From positions 1-42,292 of IMG/VR virus record IMGVR_UViG_2651869755_000015: 42,292 nucleotides of DNA. One strand, written 5' to 3'. The notes beneath the pieces are model-generated. The model was not told where the DNA came from and ran no database searches. It was given only the letters and a program-made list of their open reading frames with translations. The stretch is from a virus (lineage: Duplodnaviria > Heunggongvirae > Uroviricota > Caudoviricetes). The translations under genes were made by a program, and so were the position numbers. This document shows, in pieces, positions 4,966-39,206 of this stretch (position 1 is its first letter; each line of letters opens with the position of its first letter).

Positions 4966-5261
4966 GCCGCTTCCCTCTGCCCATCAATCCGATCCGCCAG
5001 ATCCCAGCGGGCGATAATTGCCATTGCCTCGCGCCGGTAGGAATCCATCAGTTCTTCGAACTCTGGACTGTCTTTAGCGGCCTCCAGTACTTCCTGGCGA
5101 ACGCCTTTAACTGTTACAACGTCGAAAGTTGATGCCAGTTGATGAAGCCGGATACTCTCAATCAGTTCAACTTGTCGGTCATATAGCTGTTCTGACAGGC
5201 GGTAGTCCTTGTCGAATGCCAGCATGATTTTTTGAAGATTTTTCTGCTGATTAACGTTCAT
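4962..5261 (-). CDS. Hypothetical early protein (99 aa)
   Basis: ATG at 5261 preceded by GGAGGG; ATGA overlap with exonuclease start. Confidence 0.45.
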   Translation of the reverse strand: MNVNQQKNLQKIMLAFDKDYRLSEQLYDRQVELIESIRLHQLASTFDVVTVKGVRQEVLEAAKDSPEFEELMDSYRREAMAIIARWDLADRIDGQREAA

Positions 5262-5263
5262 TA

Positions 5264-5416
5264 TCAGCCCTCCCATATCTCGTTATCGTTGGCCACATCG
5301 CGAGCTTCTTTGCTGACGAAAGCCCACTTAATGCCTTCCTGTAAGGTGCGGAACTTCCAGCTCATGAATCCGCATGCAGTAACGCAGTACCAACCGTTGA
5401 TGATTTTCCACTGCAT
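5264..5416 (-). CDS. Small protein (50 aa), weak resemblance to lambda CIII N-terminus
   Basis: Hand-translated ORF MQWKIINGWYCVTACGFMSWKFRTLQEGIKWAFVSKEARDVANDNEIWEG, not in the supplied track (<60 aa); GAGGT Shine-Dalgarno 8 nt upstream; first gene of the leftward early operon. Confidence 0.3.
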   Translation of the reverse strand: MQWKIINGWYCVTACGFMSWKFRTLQEGIKWAFVSKEARDVANDNEIWEG

Positions 5417-5497
5417 AACTTGTTACCTCGGTCTGTTATCGTTGAGGTAATAATTATGCGTATCTGGTTTGATGTCAATAGATATGAGTTAAAAAAA

Positions 5498-5512
5498 TTA
5501 CCCGTTAGGTAA
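5498..5512. promoter_or_regulatory. Operator-like palindrome TTACCCGTTAGGTAA (OL-equivalent)
   Basis: Perfect TTACC-N5-GGTAA dyad between the repressor gene end and the leftward early operon. Confidence 0.55.
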
Positions 5513-5523
5513 TCAAATAGGCA

Positions 5524-5548
5524 ATAAAAAAGCCGCCAGAAGGCGGCT
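5524..5548 (-). terminator. Rho-independent terminator downstream of repressor gene
   Basis: Stem AGCCGCC/GGCGGCT with AGAA loop, followed on the minus strand by a T-run. Confidence 0.6.
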
Positions 5549-5569
5549 TACTTACTGAAAAATATGATT

Positions 5570-6154
5570 TTATTGTTTGCTTTTTTCGTTCTGGTTGATG
5601 ACAAATTCAATGTAACTTTCGATCTTTGCCTTCTCTGTTTCAGGTAACAATGCGTAGCGCGAGCGGTCATAGTTGATAGTTGCAGGGTCATGCGGATGAA
5701 TCAGTAGTTCATATCCGTGACGCCCGAATGCAGATGCAACATTCTCCAGGGTGGAAATGGAAACGCTGACCTCATTGTTTAACAGGCGGCTGATTGTCAC
5801 CTGGGCGACGCCGGATGCGCGGTGAAGTTTTCCCTGAGTTGAAAGGTCGCGGCTTTCGCTCATCCAGCGTTCCAGGTTGTGAGCCGCCAGCTGACCAATG
5901 TCGCTTGGGCCGACAGGCTGAAAACCTTCCTGAGAAAGCGAGCGATCGATATCAAGCCAGTTACGGGGTTTATTGGCGGCAGCTTCAATTTTTCGCGCAA
6001 CCTGGTCGCCGATAACCTTCTTGCCAAGAGCCCAGCGGTTTACCAGATTTGCCTGAGTTCCAAGTTTTTCAGCCATCCGCGTCTGAACACCATTGAATTC
6101 ACGGTCGATCAAGTCGTTGAGATTTTGCCTGCGGACGTCCTGGATACTTTTCAT
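5570..6154 (-). CDS. Prophage repressor, tandem HTH (XRE-type), no obvious peptidase S24 domain
   Basis: 194 aa; two HTH-like segments (VQTRMAEKLGTQANLVNRW; VAQVTISRLLNNEVSVSISTLENVASAF); divergent from a Cro-like gene with three operators between them; no Ala-Gly/Ser-Lys autocleavage signature seen. Confidence 0.65.
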   Translation of the reverse strand: MKSIQDVRRQNLNDLIDREFNGVQTRMAEKLGTQANLVNRWALGKKVIGDQVARKIEAAANKPRNWLDIDRSLSQEGFQPVGPSDIGQLAAHNLERWMSESRDLSTQGKLHRASGVAQVTISRLLNNEVSVSISTLENVASAFGRHGYELLIHPHDPATINYDRSRYALLPETEKAKIESYIEFVINQNEKSKQ

Positions 6155-6209
6155 TTTCTGGAAAATCGCCTCATATCTGAATCAGAAGATGATTCAATTT
6201 AAAGCAATA

Positions 6210-6272
6210 TTACCCAACAGGTAAATGCACCTCATGGGTAACTATCCTTGATTTTTGTTACCTTATAGGTGA
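6210..6272. promoter_or_regulatory. Divergent immunity promoter region with three operator-like dyads (OR-equivalent)
   Basis: TTACCCAACAGGTAA (6210-6224), partial CACCTCATGGGTAA (about 6229-6242), TTACCTTATAGGTGA (6258-6272) between the repressor and cro-like start codons. Confidence 0.6.
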
Positions 6273-6308
6273 ATATTTATTATCTGAAATAAATATCAGG
6301 CAATAGCT

Positions 6309-6539
6309 ATGAGCGATAACGGACATTTCGATTTCAAAAAGCACTGGCTTGCACTTACTCCGGATGAGCGTGAAGCCTTCGCACAGGAAGCCGGAACGAC
6401 GAGTCACTATATCCAGACTCACTTAACAGGTAAGCGCAAAATGCCAGGTAAGGTATTGATGGATGGGCTTTTTAAAGCCTGTAAATCAAGACAATGGCTG
6501 CGCTCAAAAGCAGAACTGGCATACTTCTTCTACTCATGA
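6309..6539 (+). CDS. Cro-like small HTH regulator
   Basis: 76-aa protein divergent from the repressor; followed by a terminator hairpin. Confidence 0.55.
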   Translation: MSDNGHFDFKKHWLALTPDEREAFAQEAGTTSHYIQTHLTGKRKMPGKVLMDGLFKACKSRQWLRSKAELAYFFYS

Positions 6540-6560
6540 TATCCAGCCACAACCCTCTGT

Positions 6561-6584
6561 AGACCGCCATCCGGCGGTCTTTTC
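6561..6584 (+). terminator. Rho-independent terminator after cro-like gene
   Basis: Stem AGACCGCC/GGCGGTCT, loop ATCC, followed by TTTT. Confidence 0.55.
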
Positions 6585-6594
6585 ATATCTATTC

Positions 6595-6609
6595 GTACCT
6601 CAAAGGTAA
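6595..6609. promoter_or_regulatory. Operator-like dyad GTACCTCAAAGGTAA (one mismatch)
   Basis: Near-perfect copy of the TTACC-N5-GGTAA dyad upstream of the gene at 6690. Confidence 0.4.
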
Positions 6610-6689
6610 TAAAAAACCAAATATGGTTGATCTTTTTTTTGTGTCAGCACAAAATAACCGTAATCCCAATACTAATAACAGGGCTTACC

Positions 6690-6890
6690 ATGGAAATCAT
6701 TACACGTATTGATGCCGCAAAGCGCGGACTTAAACGCTACTACACCGGAAAAACATGTAAGCACGGACATGACAGTGAACGCTGGGTTTACAACGGACAC
6801 TGTGTTGAGTGCACCATGGAATCAAACCGTCGTATCAGGGCAGAGATTAAGCAGATCATGATTAATTCCTCCCCACAACATTCAAGCTGA
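6690..6890 (+). CDS. Hypothetical Cys/His-rich small protein (CII-position gene)
   Basis: ATG at 6690; CKHGHDSERWVYNGHCVEC cluster suggests metal binding; sits where lambdoid phages carry cII. Confidence 0.4.
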   Translation: MEIITRIDAAKRGLKRYYTGKTCKHGHDSERWVYNGHCVECTMESNRRIRAEIKQIMINSSPQHSS

Positions 6891-6905
6891 TAGCGGAGAT
6901 TAATC

Positions 6906-7721
6906 ATGAGCAGACATGCAACAGATTGGGCCTGGGAGACAGATCCAGGTAGCTCGTCATTAAAGCTCATACTGCTCTCGATGGCTGACAGAGCCGATGA
7001 ATATAACCTCTGCTACCCCAGCATAGAACGCCTCGTTAAAGACACTTGCCTGAATAAAAAAACCGTGCAGGCCGGGCTTATATCGCTCATGAAAATGGGG
7101 CTTATTTCAGATACCGGAGAGAGAAAGGGAGCGACGAAAAGAGTGCGGGTTTTCTCTCTTAATATAACCAAAAACGGGAACATTAAAGGCAACCGGGAAG
7201 GGGGTAATGAACCCGAAAACGGTAATGTTACCGAAAACGGGAATATACCCAAAAACGGGATGTTGAATGATCCCAAAAACGGGATGTTGAATGATCCCAA
7301 AAACGGGATCCAGAACCAGTCATATAACCAGTCATTTAACCAAGAGAGGGAGAGCAGGACAAAAAGCGGGGATTCTGTGCCTCATGACCCCGGCGCAAAC
7401 AACGCCGTGATGAATAACTTTGTTCCTCCTGGTGGGCCAGGGCAATTAGGCAAATTTGTCATGCATGAACAATGGCAGCCATCAGATGACTTTCTTCGGA
7501 AAAGCTCATTGCAGGGAATCTACCTGGACAGTCTGCCAACGGCACAGGAACTTGCAGAGTTCAGAATTTACTGGATGGCTGAGGGTAAGGCATACCATCA
7601 GGCACAGTGGGAGCAGAAGCTGGCAAGGCGGCTGCAGATTAGCAGACAGAAGCAATCAACATTACCTGATAACAACGTTCCGCACTGGAACAGCCCTGAA
7701 GCATGGGAGGATTTCTTGTGA
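6906..7721 (+). CDS. Replication initiator, lambda O-like (N-terminal HTH, repeat linker)
   Basis: 271 aa; central Asn/Gly/Pro-rich repeat (ENGNVTENGNIPKNGMLNDPKNGMLNDPKNG) encoded by direct DNA repeats; immediately upstream of the P-like gene. Confidence 0.7.
   Translation: MSRHATDWAWETDPGSSSLKLILLSMADRADEYNLCYPSIERLVKDTCLNKKTVQAGLISLMKMGLISDTGERKGATKRVRVFSLNITKNGNIKGNREGGNEPENGNVTENGNIPKNGMLNDPKNGMLNDPKNGIQNQSYNQSFNQERESRTKSGDSVPHDPGANNAVMNNFVPPGGPGQLGKFVMHEQWQPSDDFLRKSSLQGIYLDSLPTAQELAEFRIYWMAEGKAYHQAQWEQKLARRLQISRQKQSTLPDNNVPHWNSPEAWEDFL
7168..7308. repeat. Iteron array (candidate origin of replication) inside the O-like gene
   Basis: Six copies of CC(A/G)AAAACGG(G/T)A at 7168, 7213, 7231, 7249, 7273, 7297 (18- and 24-bp spacing; two identical 24-bp units CCCAAAAACGGGATGTTGAATGAT), followed by AT-rich AACCAGTCAT(A/T)TAACC repeats. 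Confidence 0.6.
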
Positions 7722-8503
7722 ACAACGTTTTTACCGCGATACAAAACCGTGACGGAGAAGCCCTTTCTCGCATGTCAGGTTATGAGCATCAGTACACCAA
7801 CAATGACAACGTGGTGAACATGTCAGCAGAGAGGCTTGTTGATGCCCTTTTCAAACAGCTGAAACAACTGTTTCCGGCGGCAGTGGTAACCAACCTGAAG
7901 ACGCCAGAGCAGGAAGTTGCTGCAAAACAGCAGTGGATTGCTGCGTTTGCCGAAGGGGGGATCCGAACCCGTGAACAGGTTTCTGCTGGTATGCGCCACG
8001 CCCGCGCCAGTGAGTCTCCGTTCTGGCCGTCGCCAGGGCAATTCATCAAGTGGTGTAAAGACAGCAAGATGGTTCTTGGCGTCACCATTGACGATGTGAT
8101 GGCGGAGTTTCACCGGTACAGCAAGGAAAAAAGTTTATATCCTGGTGGTCCCGAAAGATTCCCGTGGCGACATCCGATTATGTACTGGGTCGTATGTGAT
8201 ACCCGCCGTGCAATGTATCAGCGCCAGCTTAGCGAGATTGAGGTTGAGAAACACGCGCGCAGGCTGCTCGATGATTGGGCGAAAAAGGTGGCTTCCGGAC
8301 AGCAGATACCCGATCCGGTGATCAGCATACAGGCAAAGCCAGAACCCATGAGTACACCTCCGGACACAGGGAGAGACGTTTACCATCCACCAGGGCGAAG
8401 TTTCGGGTGCATGCCTAACGCCGCCACCCTGGGGGGAATAACACCGGCGCAGTGGCTGATGGAGGAATACAGGCGGGGAAAGGCGTCAGGATTTATCAAG
8501 TAA
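7703..8503 (+). CDS. Replication protein P-like (helicase loader)
   Basis: QQWIAAFAEGGIRTREQVSAGMRHARASESPFWPSPGQFIKWC closely parallels the recalled lambda P segment RQWVLAFRENGITTMEQVNAGMRVARRQNRPFLPSPGQFVAWC; overlaps the O-like gene end. Confidence 0.8.
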   Translation: MGGFLVNNVFTAIQNRDGEALSRMSGYEHQYTNNDNVVNMSAERLVDALFKQLKQLFPAAVVTNLKTPEQEVAAKQQWIAAFAEGGIRTREQVSAGMRHARASESPFWPSPGQFIKWCKDSKMVLGVTIDDVMAEFHRYSKEKSLYPGGPERFPWRHPIMYWVVCDTRRAMYQRQLSEIEVEKHARRLLDDWAKKVASGQQIPDPVISIQAKPEPMSTPPDTGRDVYHPPGRSFGCMPNAATLGGITPAQWLMEEYRRGKASGFIK

Positions 8504-8540
8504 TACCAGCGCGATAGCGCATTTTTTTACGTCTCGATAA

Positions 8541-8617
8541 TTACCTTAGAGGTAATAAAATATTCTAAAATCTATTGATTTCGTGTCTTATGTGGTTTTT
8601 AATTACCTAAGGGGTAA
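8541..8617. promoter_or_regulatory. Two operator-like dyads upstream of the 8621 gene
   Basis: TTACCTTAGAGGTAA (8541-8555) and TTACCTAAGGGGTAA (8603-8617); CTTATGTGGTTTTT motif between them. Confidence 0.55.
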
Positions 8618-8620
8618 ATC

Positions 8621-8968
8621 ATGAAAAAACAGATGCAGGCTCTTGGTCGACTCAAAACAGGCCAGATGAACAAAACAGAATCTGCGTATTGCCAGCACCT
8701 TGAGCTGCGTAAACGTGCAGGAGAAATCGTCTGGTATCGATTTGAGGGTATCAAGCTGCGGTTAGCTGACAACACGTTCTATACGCCAGATTTTGCTGTG
8801 ATGCTCGCCACCGGCGAGATGGAACTGCACGAAGTGAAAGGGGGATTCTGGACCGATGACGCCAGAGTGAAAACCAAAGTCGCCGCAGATCAGTATCCGT
8901 TCCGAATCATCGGGGTAACGGTTAAGCCAAAGAAAGCAGGTGGTGGCTGGAACATCGAAGAGTTCTGA
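8621..8968 (+). CDS. DUF1064-like phage protein (putative PD-(D/E)xK-type nuclease)
   Basis: 115 aa; pattern YTPDF...ELHEVKG typical of small phage nuclease-fold proteins; family assignment is by recall. Confidence 0.45.
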   Translation: MKKQMQALGRLKTGQMNKTESAYCQHLELRKRAGEIVWYRFEGIKLRLADNTFYTPDFAVMLATGEMELHEVKGGFWTDDARVKTKVAADQYPFRIIGVTVKPKKAGGGWNIEEF

Positions 8969-9029
8969 ATCGACGATCTTTTTAGTTATCAATGTAATCA
9001 ATAAGTTATGTGGATAAGCGAGGGTAAAG

Positions 9030-9467
9030 ATGGAAAGTAATATCAAATGGTTAGTTGCCGCCGGGCATGAGATGGCTTCGGAACTGAAAGCAGAATGTGG
9101 TGCCGTTGATATGCGCAGTGTGGCAAAGCTGATCAGCTATTTGGCAACGCAACTGGAAGTGCAACTGGTGCGTGCTAATGCGCTGGCTGCGGAGAATGCG
9201 CTGGCTCGTAAAGCAGTTCAGGCATTTTGCGATGTTGTTGGCGACAGCACCGAGGTTATCTGCGAGGAGATTGGGCGAGATGGCGTTCTGGTTATTTTGG
9301 AGGCAATGAAGGCAACAGGAAATATGCCAGCCACCGATGCTTTCCTGTCTGAAGTGCGGGCGCAGGGGGTAGAGATGATGCGCGAACATCCATCAATCAA
9401 ACTTTGTTCTTTGACGCACATATGTGATGAGTTAGCCGCCCAGCTTCGCAAAGGAGGCAGCCAGTGA
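9030..9467 (+). CDS. Hypothetical early protein (145 aa)
   Basis: ATG with GAGGG Shine-Dalgarno; 4-nt overlap with next gene. Confidence 0.45.
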   Translation: MESNIKWLVAAGHEMASELKAECGAVDMRSVAKLISYLATQLEVQLVRANALAAENALARKAVQAFCDVVGDSTEVICEEIGRDGVLVILEAMKATGNMPATDAFLSEVRAQGVEMMREHPSIKLCSLTHICDELAAQLRKGGSQ

Positions 9468-9952
9468 GCAAGATTGACTATCAAAAGCTTCGTGAAATCG
9501 CTGAAAAAACAAAAATTGCTGGTGAAGCACCTGTAATGCCTTTCGATCAGCGAATTAATGCGCTTAACGATTTTATGAAGCACTTTTCGCCAGATATCGT
9601 GCTGGCATTGTTGGATGAGATCAACGCATTAGAGGAAACGCGTATCAACGATGTTTGCCGTATTGCGGAACTAACAAAACAACTGGAGTTGGCAAAATCA
9701 AAACTCAACGAGCAGCGTGAGTATTACGAGGGCGTTATCTCGGATGGAAGTAAGCGCATAGCAGAGTTAGAAAGTGATTCTCAGGCACAAAAGTTAGTTG
9801 AAGCAATCATTGTTGCGATAGAAAACGAACAGGAACGTCTTTTTGATGAAGATTACCTAATGGATTCGAAAGAATGCATTGACGTAATTCGTGAAGAAGT
9901 AAAGCGATGGAATGATTCCCGCGCCGCTGGCATTCGCATCAAAGGAGAGTGA
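9464..9952 (+). CDS. Ead/Ea22-like coiled-coil protein
   Basis: GTG start after AAAGGAGG; N-terminus MSKIDYQKLREIAEK and coiled-coil character typical of Ea22-like proteins. Confidence 0.5.
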   Translation: MSKIDYQKLREIAEKTKIAGEAPVMPFDQRINALNDFMKHFSPDIVLALLDEINALEETRINDVCRIAELTKQLELAKSKLNEQREYYEGVISDGSKRIAELESDSQAQKLVEAIIVAIENEQERLFDEDYLMDSKECIDVIREEVKRWNDSRAAGIRIKGE

Positions 9953-9953
9953 G

Positions 9954-10709
9954 ATGATTCACTACCACGGTGGGCCTATTACTCCTGATACGTGCGCAAT
10001 GAGAGCATGGAAAGGGCGACATGCGTTTATCAGTTTTGCGCATTCAGGCCAGATCAATCTCGCGGCTGAATACTGTCAGTCGTTCGCGCTGGACAACGGT
10101 GCATTCACCGCCTGGAAAGCAGCTGGCAAAAACAAAATCGACTGGAGCGATTACTACGAGTTTGTTGCTCGCTGGAAGAATCACCCAGGATTCGATTTTG
10201 CCATTATCCCGGATGTTATTGATGGCGGAGAGGAGGAAAATGATGCGCTTCTGAATGAGTGGCCTCACGGAAAACTAGCTGGCGTTCCAGTGTGGCACAT
10301 GAATGAAAGTGACGAGCGATTTATTCATTTGTGCAATGAGTTTCCGCGAGTGGCTATCGGTAGTTGTGGCGACTATGACGTAAAGCGCCCAACTCTTGCG
10401 GTAGCCAGAATGAAAGACCTGATTCGTCACATTGTTGATGGGCATGGTCAGCCGGTTACGAAACTACATGGATTGCGCATGTTAAATCCGCTGATATTCA
10501 CAAAATTACCCTTAGCCAGCGCAGATAGTACGAACGTCGCTCGAAACATCGGTATTGATAAAGCCTGGTCTGGGGCTTATGCACCTGCAAGTAAAGAGAC
10601 ACGCGCAGCATTAATGGTAGAACGGATTGAGGCACACAATAGCCCTGGTTCTCTTGCGTATTGTGAACAACGCGACCGCTTTGAAATGCAATTGCAACTA
10701 GCAGTTTAA
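9954..10709 (+). CDS. Candidate tRNA-guanine-transglycosylase-like (DpdA-like) TIM-barrel protein
   Basis: ATG at 9954 after AAAGGAGAG; segments FALDNGAF, FAIIPDV, VAIGSCGDY, KLHGLRMLNP parallel E. coli Tgt segments LTDSGGFQ, VMIFDEC, YAVGGLAVGE, YLMGVGKP (recalled). Confidence 0.45.
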   Translation: MIHYHGGPITPDTCAMRAWKGRHAFISFAHSGQINLAAEYCQSFALDNGAFTAWKAAGKNKIDWSDYYEFVARWKNHPGFDFAIIPDVIDGGEEENDALLNEWPHGKLAGVPVWHMNESDERFIHLCNEFPRVAIGSCGDYDVKRPTLAVARMKDLIRHIVDGHGQPVTKLHGLRMLNPLIFTKLPLASADSTNVARNIGIDKAWSGAYAPASKETRAALMVERIEAHNSPGSLAYCEQRDRFEMQLQLAV

Positions 10710-15202: not shown

Positions 15203-15279
15203 TGGCGTGGCATGCAGGATTCGAACCTGCGACCAACCGCTTAGAAGGCGGTTGCTCTGTCCAACTGAGCTAATGCCAC
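15203..15279 (-). tRNA. tRNA-Arg (anticodon UCU)
   Basis: Minus-strand 77-nt sequence GTGGCATTAGCTCAGTTGGACAGAGCAACCGCCTTCTAAGCGGTTGGTCGCAGGTTCGAATCCTGCATGCCACGCCA folds as a cloverleaf (7-bp acceptor stem, GTTCGAATC T-loop, anticodon loop CTTCTAA, 3' CCA). Confidence 0.85.
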
Positions 15280-28896: not shown

Positions 28897-31445
28897 TGGC
28901 AGCAAACGAATTTTTGACGCAGTGCGAGCGCAGTGTAAATGCTGCCGCTGGTCGCGAGCTTTCTTCCGATGAGATGGAGTCGCTGGTGCGTGACATGAAC
29001 GACACCACTAGGCGAATTCTGGCGACCAATGAGGCGCTGTCTCTGGAAGAGGCCGCGATGCGCGCAGCGGAAGAACTGAGCAATGCCGATATGCTGGCAA
29101 AACAGATTGAGGCTCGCAATAAGGCAATCAACGCCCGTATTGCCGCACAACGACTTAGAGAGCTTCGTACTATCTGGAAAGACCGCCCGGATATCGGGCT
29201 TGAAGCAATGCTGGTTGGCCGCAACGATGCGCGTACCGGCGCCCGCCGGTCGGTATCTTCGGAGGTGGCGCAACTGCGCGGCAAGTATCATTCCGGTATC
29301 AACTACGATTTTGACCGTGCCGGGCTGGTGCAATTCATCGCCAGCGGCAGCAATGACCGGGAAATTGCCGATGCAATGTGGCGCATAGGGCGCGGGCAGT
29401 CAACTGACGGTATGACAAAGCAATCCGTAAGCGCTGCACAAATCATCATGAAATGGCAGGAAACTGCGCGCATTGATGAGAACCGCGCCGGGGCATGGAT
29501 ACGCAAAGAGCCGGGCTATATAGTGCGCCAGTCACACGACATCATGAAGATCCGCGCCGCAGGTTATGAAGCATGGCGAAATGCTATTCTCCCGCGCCTT
29601 GATGAGCGCACTTTTGACGGCGTGGCTGACCGCGAGCAGTTCATGCGTAACATTTATAACGGGCTGGCTTCCGGCGTGCATCTTACATCTGAAAAGCCCG
29701 ATTGGATGAATGGCTTTAAGGGATCGGCGAACGCAGCTAAACGCGCCAGCCAAGAGCGAATTTTGCACTTCAAAGATGGTATCTCGTGGCACGAGTACAA
29801 CCAGCAATTCGGCACCGGCAGCCTGCGAGAAGCGCTGTTTGGTGGCTTAAACAGCGCTGCCCGCACAACGGGCATGATGCGCGTACTGGGCACTAACCCA
29901 CAGAACATGTTTAAGTACCTGACGGACGCCATTGCTGAAGATATCAGCAAATCCGGAAGACCGGCAGCGTTGGCTGACTACATGACGAAGGTGCGTCGCA
30001 TTAACCGTACCGTAATGCCGCAGGTTGACGGCTCGCTAAATATTCCTGGCAGCGTAGGCTGGGCCAATGCGTCGGCGGCTGTACGCGGCTGGTTGCGTAT
30101 GAGCCAACTTGGTGGCGCGGTAATCTCATCGTTTAACGACGTGCCTATCGCCGCTACCGAGATGCGCTACCAAGGGCAGAATTTTATGCAGGCGTTGCTT
30201 GGTGCTATGAGAGGCCGCTTCACGCGTTACAACAGCGCGGAGCAGAAAGAGATCCTTTCCTCTATCGGAGTTTATTCCGACTCCATGACGCAGGAAATCA
30301 TCCGGCGCATATCTGGTGATGACACGCTGAATGGAAAGCTTGGTCGCGCGCAGCAGCTTTTCTTTAAGTACAACCTCATGAACTTCTGGACCGAGAGCGG
30401 TCGCAACAGCAACGCCATGATGATAACCAACTGGCTTGCAAAGAATGCTGACCAGTCTCATGCGCGGCTACCGGAAGACCTGCGACGCGTGCTGGATCTG
30501 CACGGTATTGGCGAACGTGAGTGGGAAATTTTTCGCAACATGGACATGGCCGATAGCGAAGGTCGTAAGTTCATGACGACCAGCGGCATCCGCGGCGTGC
30601 CTGACGAAGTGATTGCCGGTTATGTAGAGAGTAAGGGGATCAAACCAACGCAGCGCGCTATCGCTGACGCACGCGATCAATTGGAAGGGCAGTTGCGCGG
30701 CTACATCCTTGACCGCCTGAATATCGCCATGTCAGAGCCTGGCGATCGCACGCAGGCGTTTATGAAGATGGGCACGGTGCCAGGAACGGTGGCTGGGGAA
30801 GCAATACGATTCGCTGGTCAGTACAAATCGTTCACTGCAAGCTTCATGCAGAACGTACTAGGACGCGAAGTATTCGGGCGTGGTTATATTCCTGCTGGGC
30901 TTGGTGAGTCGAAAACCGGATCGCTGACGAATGCGCTGCTACGTAACGGGAAGGGGGCTTTCCTTGGTGCTGCAAACCTCTTTGTCTGGGCGACTATGTT
31001 TGGTTATATCTCCATGCAGTCAAAACTCATGCTGAAAGGGCAAACACCACGCCCGGCAGATGCCAAGACGTTTCTCGCAGCCGCATCTCAGGGGGGCGGT
31101 CTTGGCATCTTGGGTGACTTCATGTTTGGTGAGGTCAACCGCATGGGGGCCGGGCCGGTTACGTCGCTAATGGGGCCAGCAGCATCGAACGCTGACAGCA
31201 TTATCACGCTGCTCCAGCAGACCACGAGAGGGGATGCAGATTTGGGTGACTGGTATCGCACGGCACTTGACAATACGCCATTCCTCAACGTGTTCTGGCT
31301 TCGTACGGCGATGAATGGTTTAATATTGAACCGGATACAAGATGCCCTTGACCCAGGCTCTCTTGAGCGTTATCAGCGCCGTGTTGAGCGTGAGCAGGGG
31401 AACGACTTTCTGATCCCACCATCGCAGTTCATGCTAGGTAAATAA
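28896..31445 (+). CDS. Large internal virion/ejection protein
   Basis: ATG at 28896 overlapping the previous stop; 850 aa; last gene of the high-GC structural block. Confidence 0.5.
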   Translation: MAANEFLTQCERSVNAAAGRELSSDEMESLVRDMNDTTRRILATNEALSLEEAAMRAAEELSNADMLAKQIEARNKAINARIAAQRLRELRTIWKDRPDIGLEAMLVGRNDARTGARRSVSSEVAQLRGKYHSGINYDFDRAGLVQFIASGSNDREIADAMWRIGRGQSTDGMTKQSVSAAQIIMKWQETARIDENRAGAWIRKEPGYIVRQSHDIMKIRAAGYEAWRNAILPRLDERTFDGVADREQFMRNIYNGLASGVHLTSEKPDWMNGFKGSANAAKRASQERILHFKDGISWHEYNQQFGTGSLREALFGGLNSAARTTGMMRVLGTNPQNMFKYLTDAIAEDISKSGRPAALADYMTKVRRINRTVMPQVDGSLNIPGSVGWANASAAVRGWLRMSQLGGAVISSFNDVPIAATEMRYQGQNFMQALLGAMRGRFTRYNSAEQKEILSSIGVYSDSMTQEIIRRISGDDTLNGKLGRAQQLFFKYNLMNFWTESGRNSNAMMITNWLAKNADQSHARLPEDLRRVLDLHGIGEREWEIFRNMDMADSEGRKFMTTSGIRGVPDEVIAGYVESKGIKPTQRAIADARDQLEGQLRGYILDRLNIAMSEPGDRTQAFMKMGTVPGTVAGEAIRFAGQYKSFTASFMQNVLGREVFGRGYIPAGLGESKTGSLTNALLRNGKGAFLGAANLFVWATMFGYISMQSKLMLKGQTPRPADAKTFLAAASQGGGLGILGDFMFGEVNRMGAGPVTSLMGPAASNADSIITLLQQTTRGDADLGDWYRTALDNTPFLNVFWLRTAMNGLILNRIQDALDPGSLERYQRRVEREQGNDFLIPPSQFMLGK

Positions 31446-31447
31446 TA

Positions 31448-32008
31448 ATGAAGGCAATTATATTTTTTGTTTCAATATTGATGTCTGCATTTTCTTTTGC
31501 AGGGCAAAATGTTAAATGCGAACTTCAATACTTTGGAGATAGCGATAAATTTAAGGTAACTCAGTTTTCTTTTATGGGGATTCCATCTGATTCATACCTT
31601 TATACCTGTGCCGACTGTGGAGGCATCCAGATAAACGTGTTCCCATCTATTCAGACTGTTGCCTCCTACTCATTTGAAAACAACATTGATTTCGAAAGGA
31701 AAATCAATGCTGAATACAACAGAAAAGACATAGCTAAACTTGAGATGGAAAACGTTACTCAAGGCGGGAGAATAAAATATTCAATCACCGATACTGGTTT
31801 GGCAGAGTTTTACCCAGAGGGCAAAAAGATAAGCTACCTCTACTTTTTAGCCAAGCAACAAAATGGTAAAGAACAAGTAGGTTATTCAGGATTTGTTACC
31901 TCTAACGGGGATAAGTCATGCTCAATTATTGCGACATATCCAGGAAAAGAAATTTCTTTTCTGGGAAGTAAATCTTTAAGCTACTTTATGAATCATATAT
32001 CAATGTAG
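31448..32008 (+). CDS. AT-rich secreted protein (signal peptide), accessory
   Basis: N-terminal MKAIIFFVSILMSAFSFAGQ signal-peptide-like; visibly AT-rich codon usage; followed by palindrome copy 3. Confidence 0.55.
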   Translation: MKAIIFFVSILMSAFSFAGQNVKCELQYFGDSDKFKVTQFSFMGIPSDSYLYTCADCGGIQINVFPSIQTVASYSFENNIDFERKINAEYNRKDIAKLEMENVTQGGRIKYSITDTGLAEFYPEGKKISYLYFLAKQQNGKEQVGYSGFVTSNGDKSCSIIATYPGKEISFLGSKSLSYFMNHISM

Positions 32009-32022
32009 CGTGACATGTCACA
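32009..32022. repeat. 14-bp perfect palindrome CGTGACATGTCACA (copy 3, inverted orientation)
   Basis: Exact reverse complement of the 14-mer at 12194 and 14598. Confidence 0.85.
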
Positions 32023-32123
32023 GGCCGCTTTCGCGGTCTTGTTTTTAACGGATGCCACCGCCACCCGGGCGGGAATCCGCAGAACGCCCACCGCAGCGGG
32101 AGCCGTCAGCAGCAGTGTCGCTG

Positions 32124-32627
32124 TTATACTATTGAGTTAAATGATATCTTGTCCTTAATATCATTAAGTTTGCCATATATCTTTTTTGCATAAAAATCAG
32201 CTTCCTCAATAAACTTCGACTTCTCATTATCAGGCATATTTTTGAAGGTATGTGCACATGTATATTGAGAGTAGTAATTGTGAAACTTGTTATACATATT
32301 ATTGAGTTCTTGTAAGTCTTTTTTATACTCAGGAAGGTATATGTTTATTAGCATTTCCATCGTTTGCAACGGATTGACTTTTGATGTGTCAAATTTACTA
32401 TCAGAGTGGTAACTGGCATTGTTAACAAAATTGAGAATAGCCATTTTGTTTGAAGCTATGACTTTTTCAGTAAGTATGCAATTTGTGAATAATTGCTCAC
32501 GTTTATCTCTTAATATTTTTTCGCGCTCTAATTTTATGCTGTTTTTGTATCCTTGCCTTGCACTTATGTAAGTAGAAACTATAGCAATAACTGCACCTAT
32601 CAATGCGCCTAAGATAGTATTATCCAT
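32124..32627 (-). CDS. AT-rich membrane-anchored protein (1 predicted TM), accessory
   Basis: ATG at 32627 after AGGTGG; N-terminal hydrophobic helix ILGALIGAVIAIVSTYI; Lys/Asn/Tyr-rich soluble domain. Confidence 0.5.
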   Translation of the reverse strand: MDNTILGALIGAVIAIVSTYISARQGYKNSIKLEREKILRDKREQLFTNCILTEKVIASNKMAILNFVNNASYHSDSKFDTSKVNPLQTMEMLINIYLPEYKKDLQELNNMYNKFHNYYSQYTCAHTFKNMPDNEKSKFIEEADFYAKKIYGKLNDIKDKISFNSIV

Positions 32628-32652
32628 ATAAGCCACCTAAACTGCGTAAAAA

Positions 32653-33516
32653 TTATTTCCTGCCACTTCTGTAGTATATGTTGCGACCATTTTTGGTCAC
32701 ATTAACAACATGACCCTTTGTTTCTACTTTGTTATTGGTTGCCTTATATACTTCAAAGTCAAACCATGATATATGACTTATTTCGTCTATAGATACCATA
32801 ATTTCTAGACCTTGAACTTTCTTTTTGCTTATCCCTTTTATCGCAGCACTGCGCTTAATTTGGATTTCACCTGGGTAAGCGTTTGTAAATGTAACAGATA
32901 AATTTTCTTTGTTTCTGTACCCTGACATTAAAGGAACAAAAGATATGTGTTGGTGTGGCCCTTGATTTTCCGTTGGCTCACCAGAACCATTTATTATTCC
33001 AACGTATACTTTATTTGATGATAAAGTAATTAACATTGGTTTCTTAGGATCTGATTCGATTGCATCAAGCAATAGCAAATCTAAAGAACCCTGGGAGTAC
33101 GTTTTTCGCAATACTCTAGCTTTCATTGCCTCTGATATTTTGTCATAAATATCACGTTTATAAAAACAACCTAAAAGAAGATCTTTTAGCCAAACAAAAG
33201 ATACATAACACAAAGAGAAGCAAATTGATGTGACTGACAGAAGAAGTAGCCACATGTAAATTCTATCTGTTTCTGGTTTTGACGTTACATTAAAAGTTTC
33301 CACCATGTCGTGAACTAGGTGAAAATCAGGATATTTACATTTTATAAATGCGGCAATTATTACTGAAGCAACAAGGCAATATGTACCTAATGCAGCTACT
33401 TTCATATAAAGAAGCTGGCCTTCATGTCGGTATAAACGGAAATAATGATACTGGTTAGCGGTTATCATAATATAACCACTAACCAGAATGGGGATAATTA
33501 GAAGAGCTAACAACAC
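32653..33516 (-). CDS. AT-rich multi-pass membrane protein, accessory
   Basis: 287 aa; about 3 hydrophobic helices in the first ~110 residues then a soluble domain; GTG start overlapping the upstream stop (TAGTG). Confidence 0.55.
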   Translation of the reverse strand: MLLALLIIPILVSGYIMITANQYHYFRLYRHEGQLLYMKVAALGTYCLVASVIIAAFIKCKYPDFHLVHDMVETFNVTSKPETDRIYMWLLLLSVTSICFSLCYVSFVWLKDLLLGCFYKRDIYDKISEAMKARVLRKTYSQGSLDLLLLDAIESDPKKPMLITLSSNKVYVGIINGSGEPTENQGPHQHISFVPLMSGYRNKENLSVTFTNAYPGEIQIKRSAAIKGISKKKVQGLEIMVSIDEISHISWFDFEVYKATNNKVETKGHVVNVTKNGRNIYYRSGRK

Positions 33517-33725
33517 TATTTCCTTACAGTGGCAAGATCCTGTTTAACAATTGCAGCAGCGAGACGACGCATCTCTTTAACCTCAGGAAGCTCAGAAATT
33601 TGCTGTGATGAGATATATACTCCACCACGCTTGTTAACCTGCGCTGACGCCGGAACTTCTGCATTTTTTGCCTGAGGGCTGGGTGCATTATCCCTCGTTT
33701 TTGTACGAGCGAACCAAAATCCCAT
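33516..33725 (-). CDS. Hypothetical small protein (69 aa), first gene of the accessory operon
   Basis: Normal-GC ORF translationally coupled to the membrane protein; operator dyad upstream. Confidence 0.4.
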   Translation of the reverse strand: MGFWFARTKTRDNAPSPQAKNAEVPASAQVNKRGGVYISSQQISELPEVKEMRRLAAAIVKQDLATVRK

Positions 33726-33751
33726 ATCTCCTCCTCATGTAAACACATGGT

Positions 33752-33766
33752 TTACCTTTAGGGTAA
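33752..33766. promoter_or_regulatory. Operator-like dyad TTACCTTTAGGGTAA
   Basis: Perfect dyad in the 113-bp spacer upstream of the accessory operon; preceded by ACACATGGTT. Confidence 0.55.
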
Positions 33767-33838
33767 TAGTACGCTATTCACTCCCAGTCTGCAATCTGTA
33801 CAGAATTATTTAAAGGCACATCCCTGTGCCGCCGCCCG

Positions 33839-34573
33839 TCAGAAGAACCCTGCCTTGTCGTTGATGTACTCCGCGTGGGTCTGGATATCACGCAGGCATT
33901 TGCTCACACCGACGATGTAGCAGAACATGGTGGTCAGCTCCGCCGCCGCGCCCGATACGTCGTGCCCGTCTTCCTGTAACTGGTTCAGCAGATTCATCAG
34001 CAGTGAGTTCTCCGTCAGGCCGAGAACACCAGACGGCGAATGAATCAGGCTGCGGTAGCCGGGCTTCAGTGGGGCACTGTATTCTTTTTTGTCTTCCAGC
34101 TTGATCGCCTCCATAATGGCGGGCATGAATTTTTCAATTACCTGAGTGGCCTTTGATAAATCAGCTCCACCTGAGAGACGAACATCTCCACTGACATTTG
34201 CGGGTTTTCTGTCGAAGTAGCAATCTTCCAGTTTTTCGAAGACCTCCCACGCTTTTTCAGTCTCAAGAATTTTCGCATGTCGTGCTGCACCGCGAGCGGT
34301 CCATAAGAAAAGATGACTTACTTTTGGTGCAATATTAAGCAAACCTCTTTGAGAGGACTCGTTCTTAAATGCTCGTAATTCTTCGCCTATCAGCTTGAAA
34401 CAATGTTTTCCCTCAATGAATCGATCTGCATTTCGTTGATAGTTTTGACGAATCAGTTTGGGTTCTGTGTCATACAAATCAGCAAGCATTTCTGTAGTCA
34501 TTACAGGGATGTTGCAATGAGTTGTTATCGGCAACTTATCAATAGCTATATTACGCATTTTCATTGCCTCCAT
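33839..34573 (-). CDS. Antirepressor-like protein (ORF6N/Ant N-terminal domain plus C-terminal domain)
   Basis: N-terminal VMTTEMLADLYDTEPKLIRQNYQRNADRFIEGKHCFKL matches the ORF6N/Ant pattern; C-terminal ~70 aa homologous to the 35372-35629 product. Start may be 34558 or 34564. Confidence 0.65.
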   Translation of the reverse strand: MEAMKMRNIAIDKLPITTHCNIPVMTTEMLADLYDTEPKLIRQNYQRNADRFIEGKHCFKLIGEELRAFKNESSQRGLLNIAPKVSHLFLWTARGAARHAKILETEKAWEVFEKLEDCYFDRKPANVSGDVRLSGGADLSKATQVIEKFMPAIMEAIKLEDKKEYSAPLKPGYRSLIHSPSGVLGLTENSLLMNLLNQLQEDGHDVSGAAAELTTMFCYIVGVSKCLRDIQTHAEYINDKAGFF

Positions 34574-35057
34574 CTTTCACGACGAAATAGCAATTATCTT
34601 TATAATCTAACTGGATGAACTTTATGTTTTCAGGGAGTTTTACAGAAAGAGTTTTTGCACAAGCAAAACCAAAATCTGCGCCAGAAGCATCCATATACCT
34701 TAATAATTGTTTTAATGCTGAAGGAGAAAAAGTATCTACCTTCACCTCAACAGGGTAACCATCTTTTGTTTTTAGGTCTGGTTGACCTGGTCCACCAAGT
34801 ATTTCAGCGTTAAGGTATTTTGCTATTTCTGGATAAGCGTTGTATTCAGAGCGTAGTTTTGCCTTGTTATCGACTGCTAGTTGCATAAGATGATCAAACA
34901 AATTGGTATCTAAATCTGCCCCTTCATCCCACATTCTATTTCTACAGCTAATCAATTCACTGACCAGTGGTGCACTTTCTTGCCTTAGCATAAGAAGGAG
35001 TGGAGAATTAGAAATTAACCAATACAGATCGTCGTTTGAGATTTTTTGGCCTGGCAT
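34551..35057 (-). CDS. Hypothetical protein (168 aa) co-transcribed with antirepressor
   Basis: ORF with stop overlapping the ant start region. Confidence 0.45.
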   Translation of the reverse strand: MPGQKISNDDLYWLISNSPLLLMLRQESAPLVSELISCRNRMWDEGADLDTNLFDHLMQLAVDNKAKLRSEYNAYPEIAKYLNAEILGGPGQPDLKTKDGYPVEVKVDTFSPSALKQLLRYMDASGADFGFACAKTLSVKLPENIKFIQLDYKDNCYFVVKDGGNENA

Positions 35058-35211
35058 AGCGATACCTCTACTAGTAAGTTACCCACCACCGCAACGCCAA
35101 TTGCTGGTGGTGAACTGGACAAGGTTGGCGTACCGGCCTAGTAGGTACCGGCGCACCTTTCGGTGCCCCTGCCCAGCCCACCATAATTCGGATATGACTG
35201 TGCTATACGCA

Positions 35212-35235
35212 TAAAAAAACCACGTCTGGCGTGGT
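35212..35235 (-). terminator. Rho-independent terminator downstream of small antirepressor gene
   Basis: Minus strand ACCACGCCAGACGTGGT followed by TTTTTTT. Confidence 0.55.
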
Positions 35236-35325
35236 ATGCGCCTACTAGTAATCCGGGACGCCAATCCCGGCACTGGATTTTGCCAGTGCCTGATTACTAT
35301 GGCACAAGAGGAGTGCGATGTAAAT

Positions 35326-35340
35326 TTACCGCAAAGGTAA
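35326..35340. promoter_or_regulatory. Operator-like dyad TTACCGCAAAGGTAA
   Basis: Perfect dyad in the structured noncoding spacer 35058-35371. Confidence 0.5.
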
Positions 35341-35371
35341 ATATAAGCACTCCACTTGGTAATTGCAAACC

Positions 35372-35629
35372 TTATCTGGTTTGCTTTCGTAATTGTTCGG
35401 CACAATAGTCGAGATGTGTTTGCAGATCCTGCATAGACATCTGTGAGCTGGTGACGTAGTTAATCAGTGCAGTCAGTTCGGCAAGTGGGCCATCGACATT
35501 AAATCCATCCTTATCGAGATCCCGGAGTAATTTCATCAAGTGCGATCCCTCCACCAGTGACCTGACGCCTCCCGGCGTGTGAATCCTTTCGGTAAATCCG
35601 TCTTCCAGTGGATAGTGATACTGCTGCAT
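35372..35629 (-). CDS. Small antirepressor-like protein (homolog of Ant C-terminal domain)
   Basis: ATG at 35629 after GGAGAAG (track uses TTG at 35647); IHTPGGVRSLVEGSHLMKLLRDLDKDGFNVDGPLAELTALINYV aligns with IHSPSGVLGLTENSLLMNLLNQLQEDGHDVSGAAAELTTMFCYI of the 244-aa Ant; LexA box 22 bp upstream. Confidence 0.5.
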   Translation of the reverse strand: MQQYHYPLEDGFTERIHTPGGVRSLVEGSHLMKLLRDLDKDGFNVDGPLAELTALINYVTSSQMSMQDLQTHLDYCAEQLRKQTR

Positions 35630-35650
35630 CTTATCTTCTCCATGCAATAA

Positions 35651-35666
35651 CTGTATATTTATACAG
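35651..35666. promoter_or_regulatory. LexA (SOS) box CTGTATATTTATACAG
   Basis: AACTGTATATTTATACAGTA matches the E. coli LexA consensus TACTGTATATATATACAGTA at 18 of 20 positions, with perfect CTGT-N8-ACAG. Confidence 0.7.
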
Positions 35667-35705
35667 TATCAAATAATTTGTTTGCTATCCAGCACGTTTC
35701 GCAAA

Positions 35706-35720
35706 TTACCTGAAAGGTAA
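35706..35720. promoter_or_regulatory. Operator-like dyad TTACCTGAAAGGTAA upstream of tailspike
   Basis: Identical to 15602-15616; followed by CCATATGTGGTTTTTCAGGTAAT. Confidence 0.55.
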
Positions 35721-35824
35721 TATCTGTTCGTATTCACACCATTTCTATCCATATGTGGTTTTTCAGGTAATAGAATAACCAGATATGCGGCGCAACGGGT
35801 GCTGCGACTATCTGGAGATTTAAC

Positions 35825-38800: not shown

Positions 38801-38813
38801 TAATAAATGCAAT

Positions 38814-38845
38814 AACCCCGAATAAAACAGCGGGGTTATTGTTAT
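38814..38845 (+). terminator. Rho-independent terminator after tailspike
   Basis: Stem AACCCCG/CGGGGTT followed by T-rich tract. Confidence 0.55.
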
Positions 38846-39206
38846 TATAATAATGCTCTTAACTTCTTAAATGATATTTATATGCACTTAGATTATTAAA
38901 TCTATATTATGCCTGTTATTTATGTGTTCTGTTATATGTTTTGCAGGCACTGTTGGCAGCATTAAAGGAAATTGTATTTATGGCGAAATAGCTGGTATCG
39001 TGTTTTTATTGTGCGTAAAAATAACAGACTGCATATATTATTGTATAAAGTTTTGGAAATGAAAACACTCAAACTTACCGCTGTGGATATGTTTTGACCA
39101 TCGCGAATTGGATTGGTAATATTGGGTAACAAAAAACCATAAATGGTTTATCATGCGTAATGCTTTACTGTTCAGGAGGTAGTTATGCATATAAACGGTG
39201 GAAAAC

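Follow-up and report, generated by a model that had tools for sequence, protein, structure and literature searches.

A candidate lambda-type replication origin inside the initiator gene of a phiV10/epsilon15-like prophage

Lambdoid phages carry their replication origin in the middle of gene O, where iterons are followed by an AT-rich tract and the iterons nearest that tract are the most important (PMC7466680). The question raised by the locus described here, a predicted replication initiator gene at positions 6906-7721 of a 42,292-bp stretch of phage DNA (IMG/VR record IMGVR_UViG_2651869755_000015, hereafter the window), is whether the direct repeats within this gene form an origin of the same kind or have another function. 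The window represents an Escherichia coli prophage that resembles phiV10 and epsilon15 (Uetakevirus), and a first-pass annotation had proposed a lambda-type origin at this site. The present analysis supports this proposal, as the dyad form of the repeats, their position in linker-coding DNA, an adjacent homolog of lambda P, frame-independent conservation among relatives and a natural domain swap in Edwardsiella phage GF-2 all point in the same direction. Judged from these sequence comparisons, the array at 7166-7309 very probably supplies the iterons of the prophage replication origin, which would lie within its own initiator gene, in the part that codes for the linker, much as ori-lambda lies within gene O.

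The repeat array and the gene that contains it

The elements that define the candidate origin, the gene in which they lie and the gene that follows it are listed below (ORF, open reading frame; ssDNA, single-stranded DNA; pLDDT, per-residue confidence of the structural model).

6906..7721, + strand: initiator gene (271 aa) for a winged helix, a disordered linker and a DnaT-type ssDNA-binding domain (ORF, Pfam, PHROG, AlphaFold2, Foldseek)
6906..7169, + strand: winged-helix coding segment (aa 1-88), the putative iteron-binding domain (pLDDT 94-98; HTH_36 in relatives)
7166..7179, + strand: iteron 1 (AACCAAAAACGGGA), a distal, degenerate copy
7211..7224, + strand: iteron 2 (ACCCGAAAACGGTA), matching both the pattern and the core given below
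7229..7242, + strand: iteron 3 (TACCGAAAACGGGA), matching both pattern and core
7247..7260, + strand: iteron 4 (ACCCAAAAACGGGA), matching both pattern and core
7270..7285, + strand: iteron 5 (ATCCC-AAAAAC-GGGAT), with inverted arms of 5 bp
7294..7309, + strand: iteron 6 (ATCCC-AAAAAC-GGGAT), the last copy, adjoining the pentamer box
7311..7342, + strand: pentamer box (CAGAACC, then TAACC, TAACC, with a 12-bp period), candidate start of an unwinding element
7342..7372, + strand: purine-rich run (AAGAGAGGGAGAGCAGGACAAAAAGCGGGGA), in the position that an A-rich tract occupies in relatives and in lambda, with a presumed role in the origin
7703..8503, + strand: lambda-P-type helicase loader gene (Pfam Phage_lambda_P, 2.1e-56; PHROG 109, 'P-like helicase loader')

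The window contains exactly six matches to the pattern CCRAAAACGGKA, all on the + strand and starting at 7168, 7213, 7231, 7249, 7273 and 7297 (start-to-start spacings of 45, 18, 18, 24 and 24 bp), when 0.01 would be expected by chance and six were reached in 0/100 shuffles. Tandem Repeats Finder reported three arrays, with periods of 18 bp (7203-7258), 24 bp (7248-7309; 2.6 copies, 100% identical) and 12 bp (AACCAGTCATAT, 7314-7342; 2.4 copies, 94%), and a separate repeat search of the window agrees with these arrays; both the six direct repeats and the identical 24-bp units named in the first-pass annotation are thus present. When the 14-bp core TCCCAAAAACGGGA was allowed up to 3 mismatches, its sole cluster in the window was the array at 7166-7309, and outside it there were two lone 3-mismatch matches at chance level (387-400 and 34227-34240, both on the - strand). 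The three right-hand iterons are partial palindromes of the form (A)TCCC-AAAAAC-GGGA(T). The initiator ORF holds six tandem direct repeats in all, where a lambda-type origin calls for at least four with an internal dyad.

On the opposite strand, two terminator-like hairpins at 7256-7299 (TGGGATCATTCAACATCCCG and TTTTTGGG) consist of the facing arms of neighboring iterons together with their A-tracts. These hairpins are probably incidental, and they would oppose antisense transcription entering the origin. A 95-aa - strand ORF at 7013-7300 was not taken as a gene, as it is a by-product of the repeats.

The protein encoded by 6906-7721 belongs with initiators of the HTH_36 type, as it matches PHROG 1032 ('replication initiation protein') at 1.3e-108 over aa 1-269, Pfam HTH_36 over aa 18-67 (1.8e-10) and Pfam DnaT over aa 184-252 (1.2e-15). 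An AlphaFold2 model built with 107 diverse relatives contains a winged helix at aa 1-88 (pLDDT 94-98; helices 3-11, 17-28, 40-47 and 51-63, strands 67-74 and 80-85) and a helical C-terminal domain at about aa 181-255 (pLDDT 82-86), and residues 89-180 have pLDDT <60 and are therefore regarded as a linker. The iterons encode aa 87-135 of the 271 residues, so by both the Pfam domains and the pLDDT profile they lie in linker-coding DNA between the N- and C-terminal domains, and the DNA for the disordered linker is exactly where the repeats, the 12-mers and the purine-rich run are found. Asn, Gly and Pro make up 48% of residues 86-148 compared with 11% of the remaining protein, as expected from the earlier description of an Asn/Gly/Pro-rich linker encoded by repeats inside the initiator gene.

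The C-terminal domain superposes on the DnaT ssDNA-binding domain (4ou6/6aeq; Foldseek, ~50% identity, TM ~0.8), and it is the C-terminal 70-80 residues of the protein that match this domain of E. coli DnaT, whereas its N-terminal two thirds are unrelated. Identity of the whole protein with DnaT was considered and rejected: the NCBIfam equivalog NF002770 scored 85 bits against a cut-off of 201, and only DnaT positions 86-169 were matched. The match of the C-terminal domain, taken with this failed cut-off, argues that the labels 'primosomal protein I' and 'DnaT-like ssDNA-binding domain-containing protein' are a domain-level carry-over which does not describe the function of the whole protein. 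For the N-terminal domain, a profile search of the Protein Data Bank gave no match below E 0.1, and a Foldseek search of the same database returned generic winged helices only.

The gene that lies directly downstream and overlaps the initiator gene encodes a loader with 31% identity to lambda P (BLASTP, E 1e-35). Its start is either the ATG at 7703 (ORF list) or the GTG at 7718 (phiV10 annotation); in the second case the initiator stop codon TGA overlaps the start as GTGA at 7718-7721, which suggests translational coupling of the initiator and the P-like gene.

Conservation of the array and of the box beside it

Homologs of the N-terminal domain (aa 1-88) were collected with one genome per species, yielding 80 loci (40-87% identity) from Enterobacterales, Vibrio, Pseudoalteromonas, Marinomonas, Acinetobacter, Desulfovibrionaceae, Burkholderiaceae and Sphingomonadales. 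Four phages (GF-2, Vibrio phage Her, AP22 and PPompW) were added, and 77 distinct loci were counted. At least four copies of one 12-mer, with up to 2 mismatches, occur within the 330 bp after the N-domain in 67/77 loci (4-11 copies), compared with 0, 0, 1 and 0 of 77 in four control windows from the same loci. The repeat is almost always a CCC-(A-rich, about 6 bp)-GGG partial palindrome, and its spacings peak at 17, 22 and 24 bp. HTH_36 is present in 71/71 aligned relatives, and their C-termini vary (DnaT in 8, Phg_2220_C in 5, DnaA_N in 2, and in most others no recognized C-terminal family), so the N-domain and the repeats stay together while the C-termini differ. This N-domain family is large, with 608 clusters (50% identity) at E <= 1e-10 and 3,813 at E <= 1e-3.

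A second conserved element lies on the right-hand side of the array. In 73 distinct loci the last iteron is succeeded at once by a C[AG]GAAYC box (frame 0 in 57 loci, frame 1 in 13 and frame 2 in 3), and three [G/T]AAYC pentamers with a spacing of 12-13 bp fall within 40 bp in 54/73 loci, as opposed to 0.6% of control GAAYC sites in those loci. The window pentamers begin at 7313 (GAACC), 7325 (TAACC) and 7337 (TAACC), and the AACCAGTCATWT repeats of the first-pass annotation correspond to this box at 7311-7342. The DNA that follows is 82% purine in the window (7343-7375) and in many relatives is an A-rich run such as TCTAAAAATAAAAAA; averaged over the family, the A+T excess peaks at +0.17, 50-60 bp past the last iteron.

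It is possible, and we propose it tentatively, that the pentamers are a sequence-specific unwinding or ssDNA-recognition element read by the initiator, with the DnaT-type domain a possible reader in this phage. The pentamers, N-domain and iterons might then form a portable cassette that recombines within the origin, as seen where GF-2 and lambda join, and serves at least 600 protein clusters with varied helicase-recruiting C-termini. A separate feature of several enterobacterial and Vibrio relatives is the sequence AAAGATCT, found after the pentamer box and ~30-45 bp past the last iteron (loci L004, L006, L109, L141, L146 and L153). It holds a GATC (Dam) site in a context that recalls the GATCT start of the oriC 13-mers, and the candidate origin region of the window lacks it.

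A comparison of phage GF-2 with lambda provides a natural exchange of the same region. The GF-2 gp62 protein ('replication initiation O-like', NC_026611) is 50% identical to the window protein over aa 1-139, and its C-terminal half shares 62% identity with lambda O (E 2e-67). Its gene contains iterons of the window's type (CCCAAAAACGGGA, and TCCCAAAATTGGGA three times at 24 bp) and a CAGAAYC pentamer box, and a P homolog lies downstream. GF-2 and lambda DNA join at CGTCAGAGAATTCTGGCGAATCCTC of lambda, immediately beyond the right-hand end of the A-rich part, so the GF-2 cassette substitutes jointly for the N-domain, iterons and AT-rich tract of lambda, and gp62 is a natural hybrid of the two systems.

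These features can be combined in a model for initiation. The six partial palindromes (consensus ATCCC-AAAAAC-GGGAT) would be bound by the N-terminal winged helix, which probably acts as a dimer, and the best sites would be the three 24-bp-spaced copies on the promoter-distal side, beside the pentamer box. Binding would wrap the DNA into a nucleoprotein complex like the O-some and destabilize and open the adjacent right-hand DNA, made up of the pentamers (7311-7342) and the purine-rich run after them (7342-7372). The DnaT-type domain may hold the ssDNA, contact the P-type loader or do both, and the loader would deliver the host DnaB helicase; transcription from the rightward promoter may also be needed.

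The origin reading weighed against its alternatives

Several observations weigh against the reading of this array as an origin. All six window copies share one reading frame (peptides TKNG, PENG, TENG and, three times, PKNG), so the case for conservation as DNA and not as peptide rests on relatives. The 12-bp repeats at 7314-7342 are 66% A+T over 29 bp compared with 51% for the window, so the earlier description of AT-rich repeats after the iterons was right about the repeats, which are real and a conserved family feature, and overstated their composition. The least stable 30-40-mers in 6001-9000 are intergenic and away from the iterons, at ~8537-8553 and ~6258-6270. BLASTP found no significant match between the window initiator and lambda O, and hhalign gave the pair a probability of 7%, though the equivalent recognition-helix and wing region was aligned. 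The phiV10 RefSeq record annotates no origin feature in the replication-region stretch, and literature searches returned no paper combining phiV10 with iterons and none containing the iteron strings. Finally, a plasmid record that might be cited in favor of function is ambiguous. This 8,461-bp circular E. coli record (NZ_CP148379.1; locus L170) carries a repressor, cro, ydaT, an initiator relative of the PPompW type with CCCAAAAACGGGA-type iterons, a P homolog and a few defence-like genes, and the initiator relative and P homolog are its only recognizable replication genes. In make-up it resembles a natural lambda-dv-type replicon or an excised piece of prophage, and it gives a weak hint of function, yet it may be an assembly or excision product, and the PLSDB gene table is incomplete.

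A first alternative, which we consider unlikely, is that the repeats are initiator-binding sites used in autoregulation, in copy control by titration or handcuffing, or as a roadblock to transcription, and that replication starts elsewhere, for example in the strongly A+T-rich intergenic DNA past the P-like gene (~8504-8620) or at the repressor/cro region (~6160-6300). Plasmid iterons also serve as control elements, and the modest A+T content of the tract beside the iterons and the distant position of the stability minima would suit such a role. The pentamer box is the second least stable 30-mer of the initiator gene: duplex stability at 7314-7342 (kcal/mol, 30-mers) is -34.9, at the 94th percentile of a window whose mean is -40.9 (sd 3.7), compared with the far weaker AT-rich tract of lambda at -30.3 against a mean of -41.3. 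Unwinding would occur beside the iterons, in a tract that is only modestly A+T-rich. What speaks against a distant start is that the iteron core has no match at ~8504-8620, at ~6160-6300 or at a promoter, its two other matches in the window being those at chance level, and that the GF-2 cassette replaces exactly the iterons and AT-rich tract of lambda. In addition, a second conserved element that follows the iterons irrespective of frame, often with an A-rich run, has the anatomy of an origin and not of an operator. The two DnaA boxes in the window, one of them at 9009-9017, are at chance level. The promoter and terminator scan gave counts at shuffle level, and GC skew was uninformative, with a cumulative minimum at 5-7 kb that coincides with a switch in transcription direction.

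A second alternative holds that the array is a slippage-prone coding repeat for a flexible Asn/Gly/Pro linker of variable length, with no cis-acting function in the DNA. In addition to the shared frame of the six window copies, which encode xKNG or xENG, this idea can draw on the predicted disorder of the region and on the behavior of 80 near-identical prophage copies, in which the array has 3-9 units and always varies by multiples of 3 bp (the window's layout is the commonest, at 53/80), giving protein variants of 271-311 aa. The relatives tell a different story. The repeats are read in at least two frames within one gene in 57/67 loci and in all three in 36/67, and spacings of 17 and 22 bp turn the same motif into unrelated peptides such as PKNG, QKRD and PKTE; at one locus (L107), CCCAAAAACGGG occurs in frames 1,0,1,0,2,0,1,0,2,0,0, encoding PKNG, PQKR and PKTD. 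Even where the frame is kept, amino-acid changes preserve the CCC...GGG dyad (PKNG, PKIG, PIYG and PKFG from CCCAAAAACGGG, CCCAAAATTGGG, CCCATATACGGG and CCCAAATTTGGG), and inverted-repeat arms would be needless for a peptide repeat. The use of two or three frames at so many loci shows that the repeats are conserved as DNA and not as peptide, and with it a purely protein-level repeat becomes very improbable.

Least probable of all is that the repeats are sites for a protein other than the initiator N-domain (a host factor, the repressor, Cro or the 66-aa product of 6690-6890), since the array and the HTH_36 N-domain are found together across phyla even as neighboring genes and C-termini change, even if the small upstream genes are uncharacterized and initiator-iteron binding is itself a prediction. 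Iteron variants also track variants of the wing and recognition helix (DTGKRKG with ACCCCC...GGGGG, DTGKTRG with GTACCAAAAGTGGTAC, and a divergent wing with CCCCCGCCGGAAAC), a pattern that is suggestive and confounded by phylogeny.

Genomic context and comparison with known systems

The genes and signals upstream of the initiator gene occur in the following order.

5570-6154, - strand: repressor
6309-6539: cro-like gene
6561-6580: terminator-like hairpin
6690-6890: 66-aa ORF

The O-P region is 98-99% identical to that of phages phiV10, PAS61, EC.W1-9 and phiv142-3 and is found in 424/5,426 complete E. coli genomes (about 8%). The phiV10 RefSeq record names the gene 'replication initiation protein', identified via the DnaT family. 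No known RNA family was found by Rfam in 5000-10000.

Elsewhere in the prophage, a tRNA-Arg gene (anticodon TCT) lies at 15203-15279 on the - strand, and a block near the right end (~31000-39000) has a lower G+C content than the neighboring structural genes (0.39-0.44 vs ~0.50-0.56), which may mark horizontally acquired cargo or a tailspike/serotype-conversion region. The initiator gene (99.8-100% identity) is also present in duck E. coli HL15 and SF10, both in the chromosomes (NZ_CP079770.1 and NZ_CP079767.1) and in 41,027-bp 'plasmids' (NZ_CP079771.1 and NZ_CP079768.1), and these 41-kb records are probably an excised or replicating phage genome caught in assembly. Two further records end in a phiV10-type immunity and replication region (97-99% identical), namely PP488543.1 (BP9, a Vequintavirus of 138 kb; 133.4-138.0 kb) and PP350014.1 (PH444, 115 kb), where chimeric assembly or prophage contamination is likely, as opposed to a true part of these large lytic phages.

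Elements of this kind are textbook material, and both PHROGs and RefSeq already name the protein a replication initiator, so the general understanding of phage replication is unchanged by this finding. What is new is the explicit proposal of an origin for the phiV10 group, the frame-independent conservation in the HTH_36 initiator family, the pentamer box and the GF-2 natural domain swap, of which no description was found in the literature searched; searches on epsilon15 and origins also returned nothing relevant. Phages of the phiV10/epsilon15 type thereby gain a concrete candidate origin, 7166-7372, in a place where database labels read 'primosomal protein' or 'DnaT-like protein'. The comparison also offers a simple way to predict where origins lie in prophages of this type and explains why the 'linker' is hypervariable in length.

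Among known systems, the Rac prophage of E. coli K-12 has a replication gene, ydaU, at the equivalent position, after racR-ydaS-ydaT, and the ydaU product of Rac-SA53 (a Rac-type phage) matches the window protein at aa 181-247, the DnaT-like region. Rac is reported to contain an active origin, oriJ, which has been used to make plasmids (PMC3945230; reference list of PMC11014345). The oriJ system was rejected as an experimentally validated homolog of the candidate origin, as YdaU has a DUF1376 N-domain and different repeats, and it is followed by a DnaC-like ATPase gene (ydaV) instead of P. Within the K-12 ydaU gene there is a separate set of four AACAGATGTTCAA-like repeats (locus L171, 1972-2063; spacing 33, 33 and 12 bp), which suggests an origin-in-initiator design with an unrelated DNA-binding domain.

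By description, the candidate origin is also like those of the iteron plasmids (RK2 oriV/TrfA, pPS10/RepA and R6K/pi), in which a winged-helix initiator acts on tandem iterons, variable in number, beside an unwinding element of short motifs. The 13-mers of oriC and RK2 and the DnaA-trios are suggested analogs of the [G/T]AAYC pentamers, and in RK2 the Rep protein is reported to bind the 13-mers of the unwinding element sequence-specifically as ssDNA (PMC4081077). The plasmids differ in that the origin usually lies outside the rep gene, that Rep has tandem WH1-WH2 domains and that helicase is obtained via DnaA/DnaC or directly, whereas the window phage has a P-type loader.

The closest parallel in design is lambda, even though the initiators belong to different families. 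The first-pass annotation had called the gene 'O-like', which holds functionally, given the in-gene origin design and the P homolog next to it; by sequence the protein is not of the lambda O family. The lambda O N-domain (Pfam PF04492, Phage_rep_O) was sought in the window protein and rejected, as the window N-domain matches only HTH_36, even at E <=10, and lambda O matches only PF04492; nor does the window initiator contain the lambda O C-domain (residues about 156-299), its C-terminus being DnaT-type. Lambda O combines Phage_rep_O with its own C-domain, and the window initiator combines HTH_36 with a DnaT-type domain. The N-terminal parts of both proteins match PHROGs 678 and 345 at overlapping profile positions, and a Foldseek search of BFVD with the model retrieved the 'replication protein O' of phage Min27 (E 3.4e-7) and a 'lambda GpO N-terminal' protein (E 5.6e-6), in comparisons where winged helices are common and the linker lowers global TM.

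At the level of DNA, the lambda record (NC_001416) annotates four iterons in gene O (ATCCCTCAAAACGAGGGA, ATCCCCTAAAACGAGGGA, ATCCCTCAAATTGGGGGA and ATCCCTCAAAACAGGGGG) with a purine/A-rich tract next to them. The lambda iteron ATCCCTCAAAACGAGGGA (ATCCCTC-AAAAC-GAGGGA) and the window iteron ATCCCAAAAACGGGAT (ATCCC-AAAAAC-GGGAT) are alike in their outer arms and A-tract center, and the window iterons have shorter arms (16 bp vs 18-19 bp overall). By their annotated coordinates the lambda iterons also lie in differing frames (0, 2, 2 and 1). Iteron number varies between relatives in both groups, being four in lambda and six in Stx phages such as 933W and P27 (PMC7466680). The flanking tract of the window is 66% A+T and starts with three [G/T]AAYC pentamers, as compared with 73% over a longer stretch in lambda, and in both phages the purine/A-rich tract is on the promoter-distal side of the iterons.

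Lambda and, with its candidate origin, the window share a layout in which the origin lies in the middle of the initiator gene, within the inter-domain linker, with 4-6 direct repeats and a P-type loader gene next to it. On the evidence of the relatives, this lambda design of a winged helix, an origin in linker-coding DNA and an exchangeable helicase-recruiting C-domain appears to be shared by a very large initiator family with another Pfam N-domain, from Enterobacterales to Desulfovibrionaceae and Sphingomonadales.

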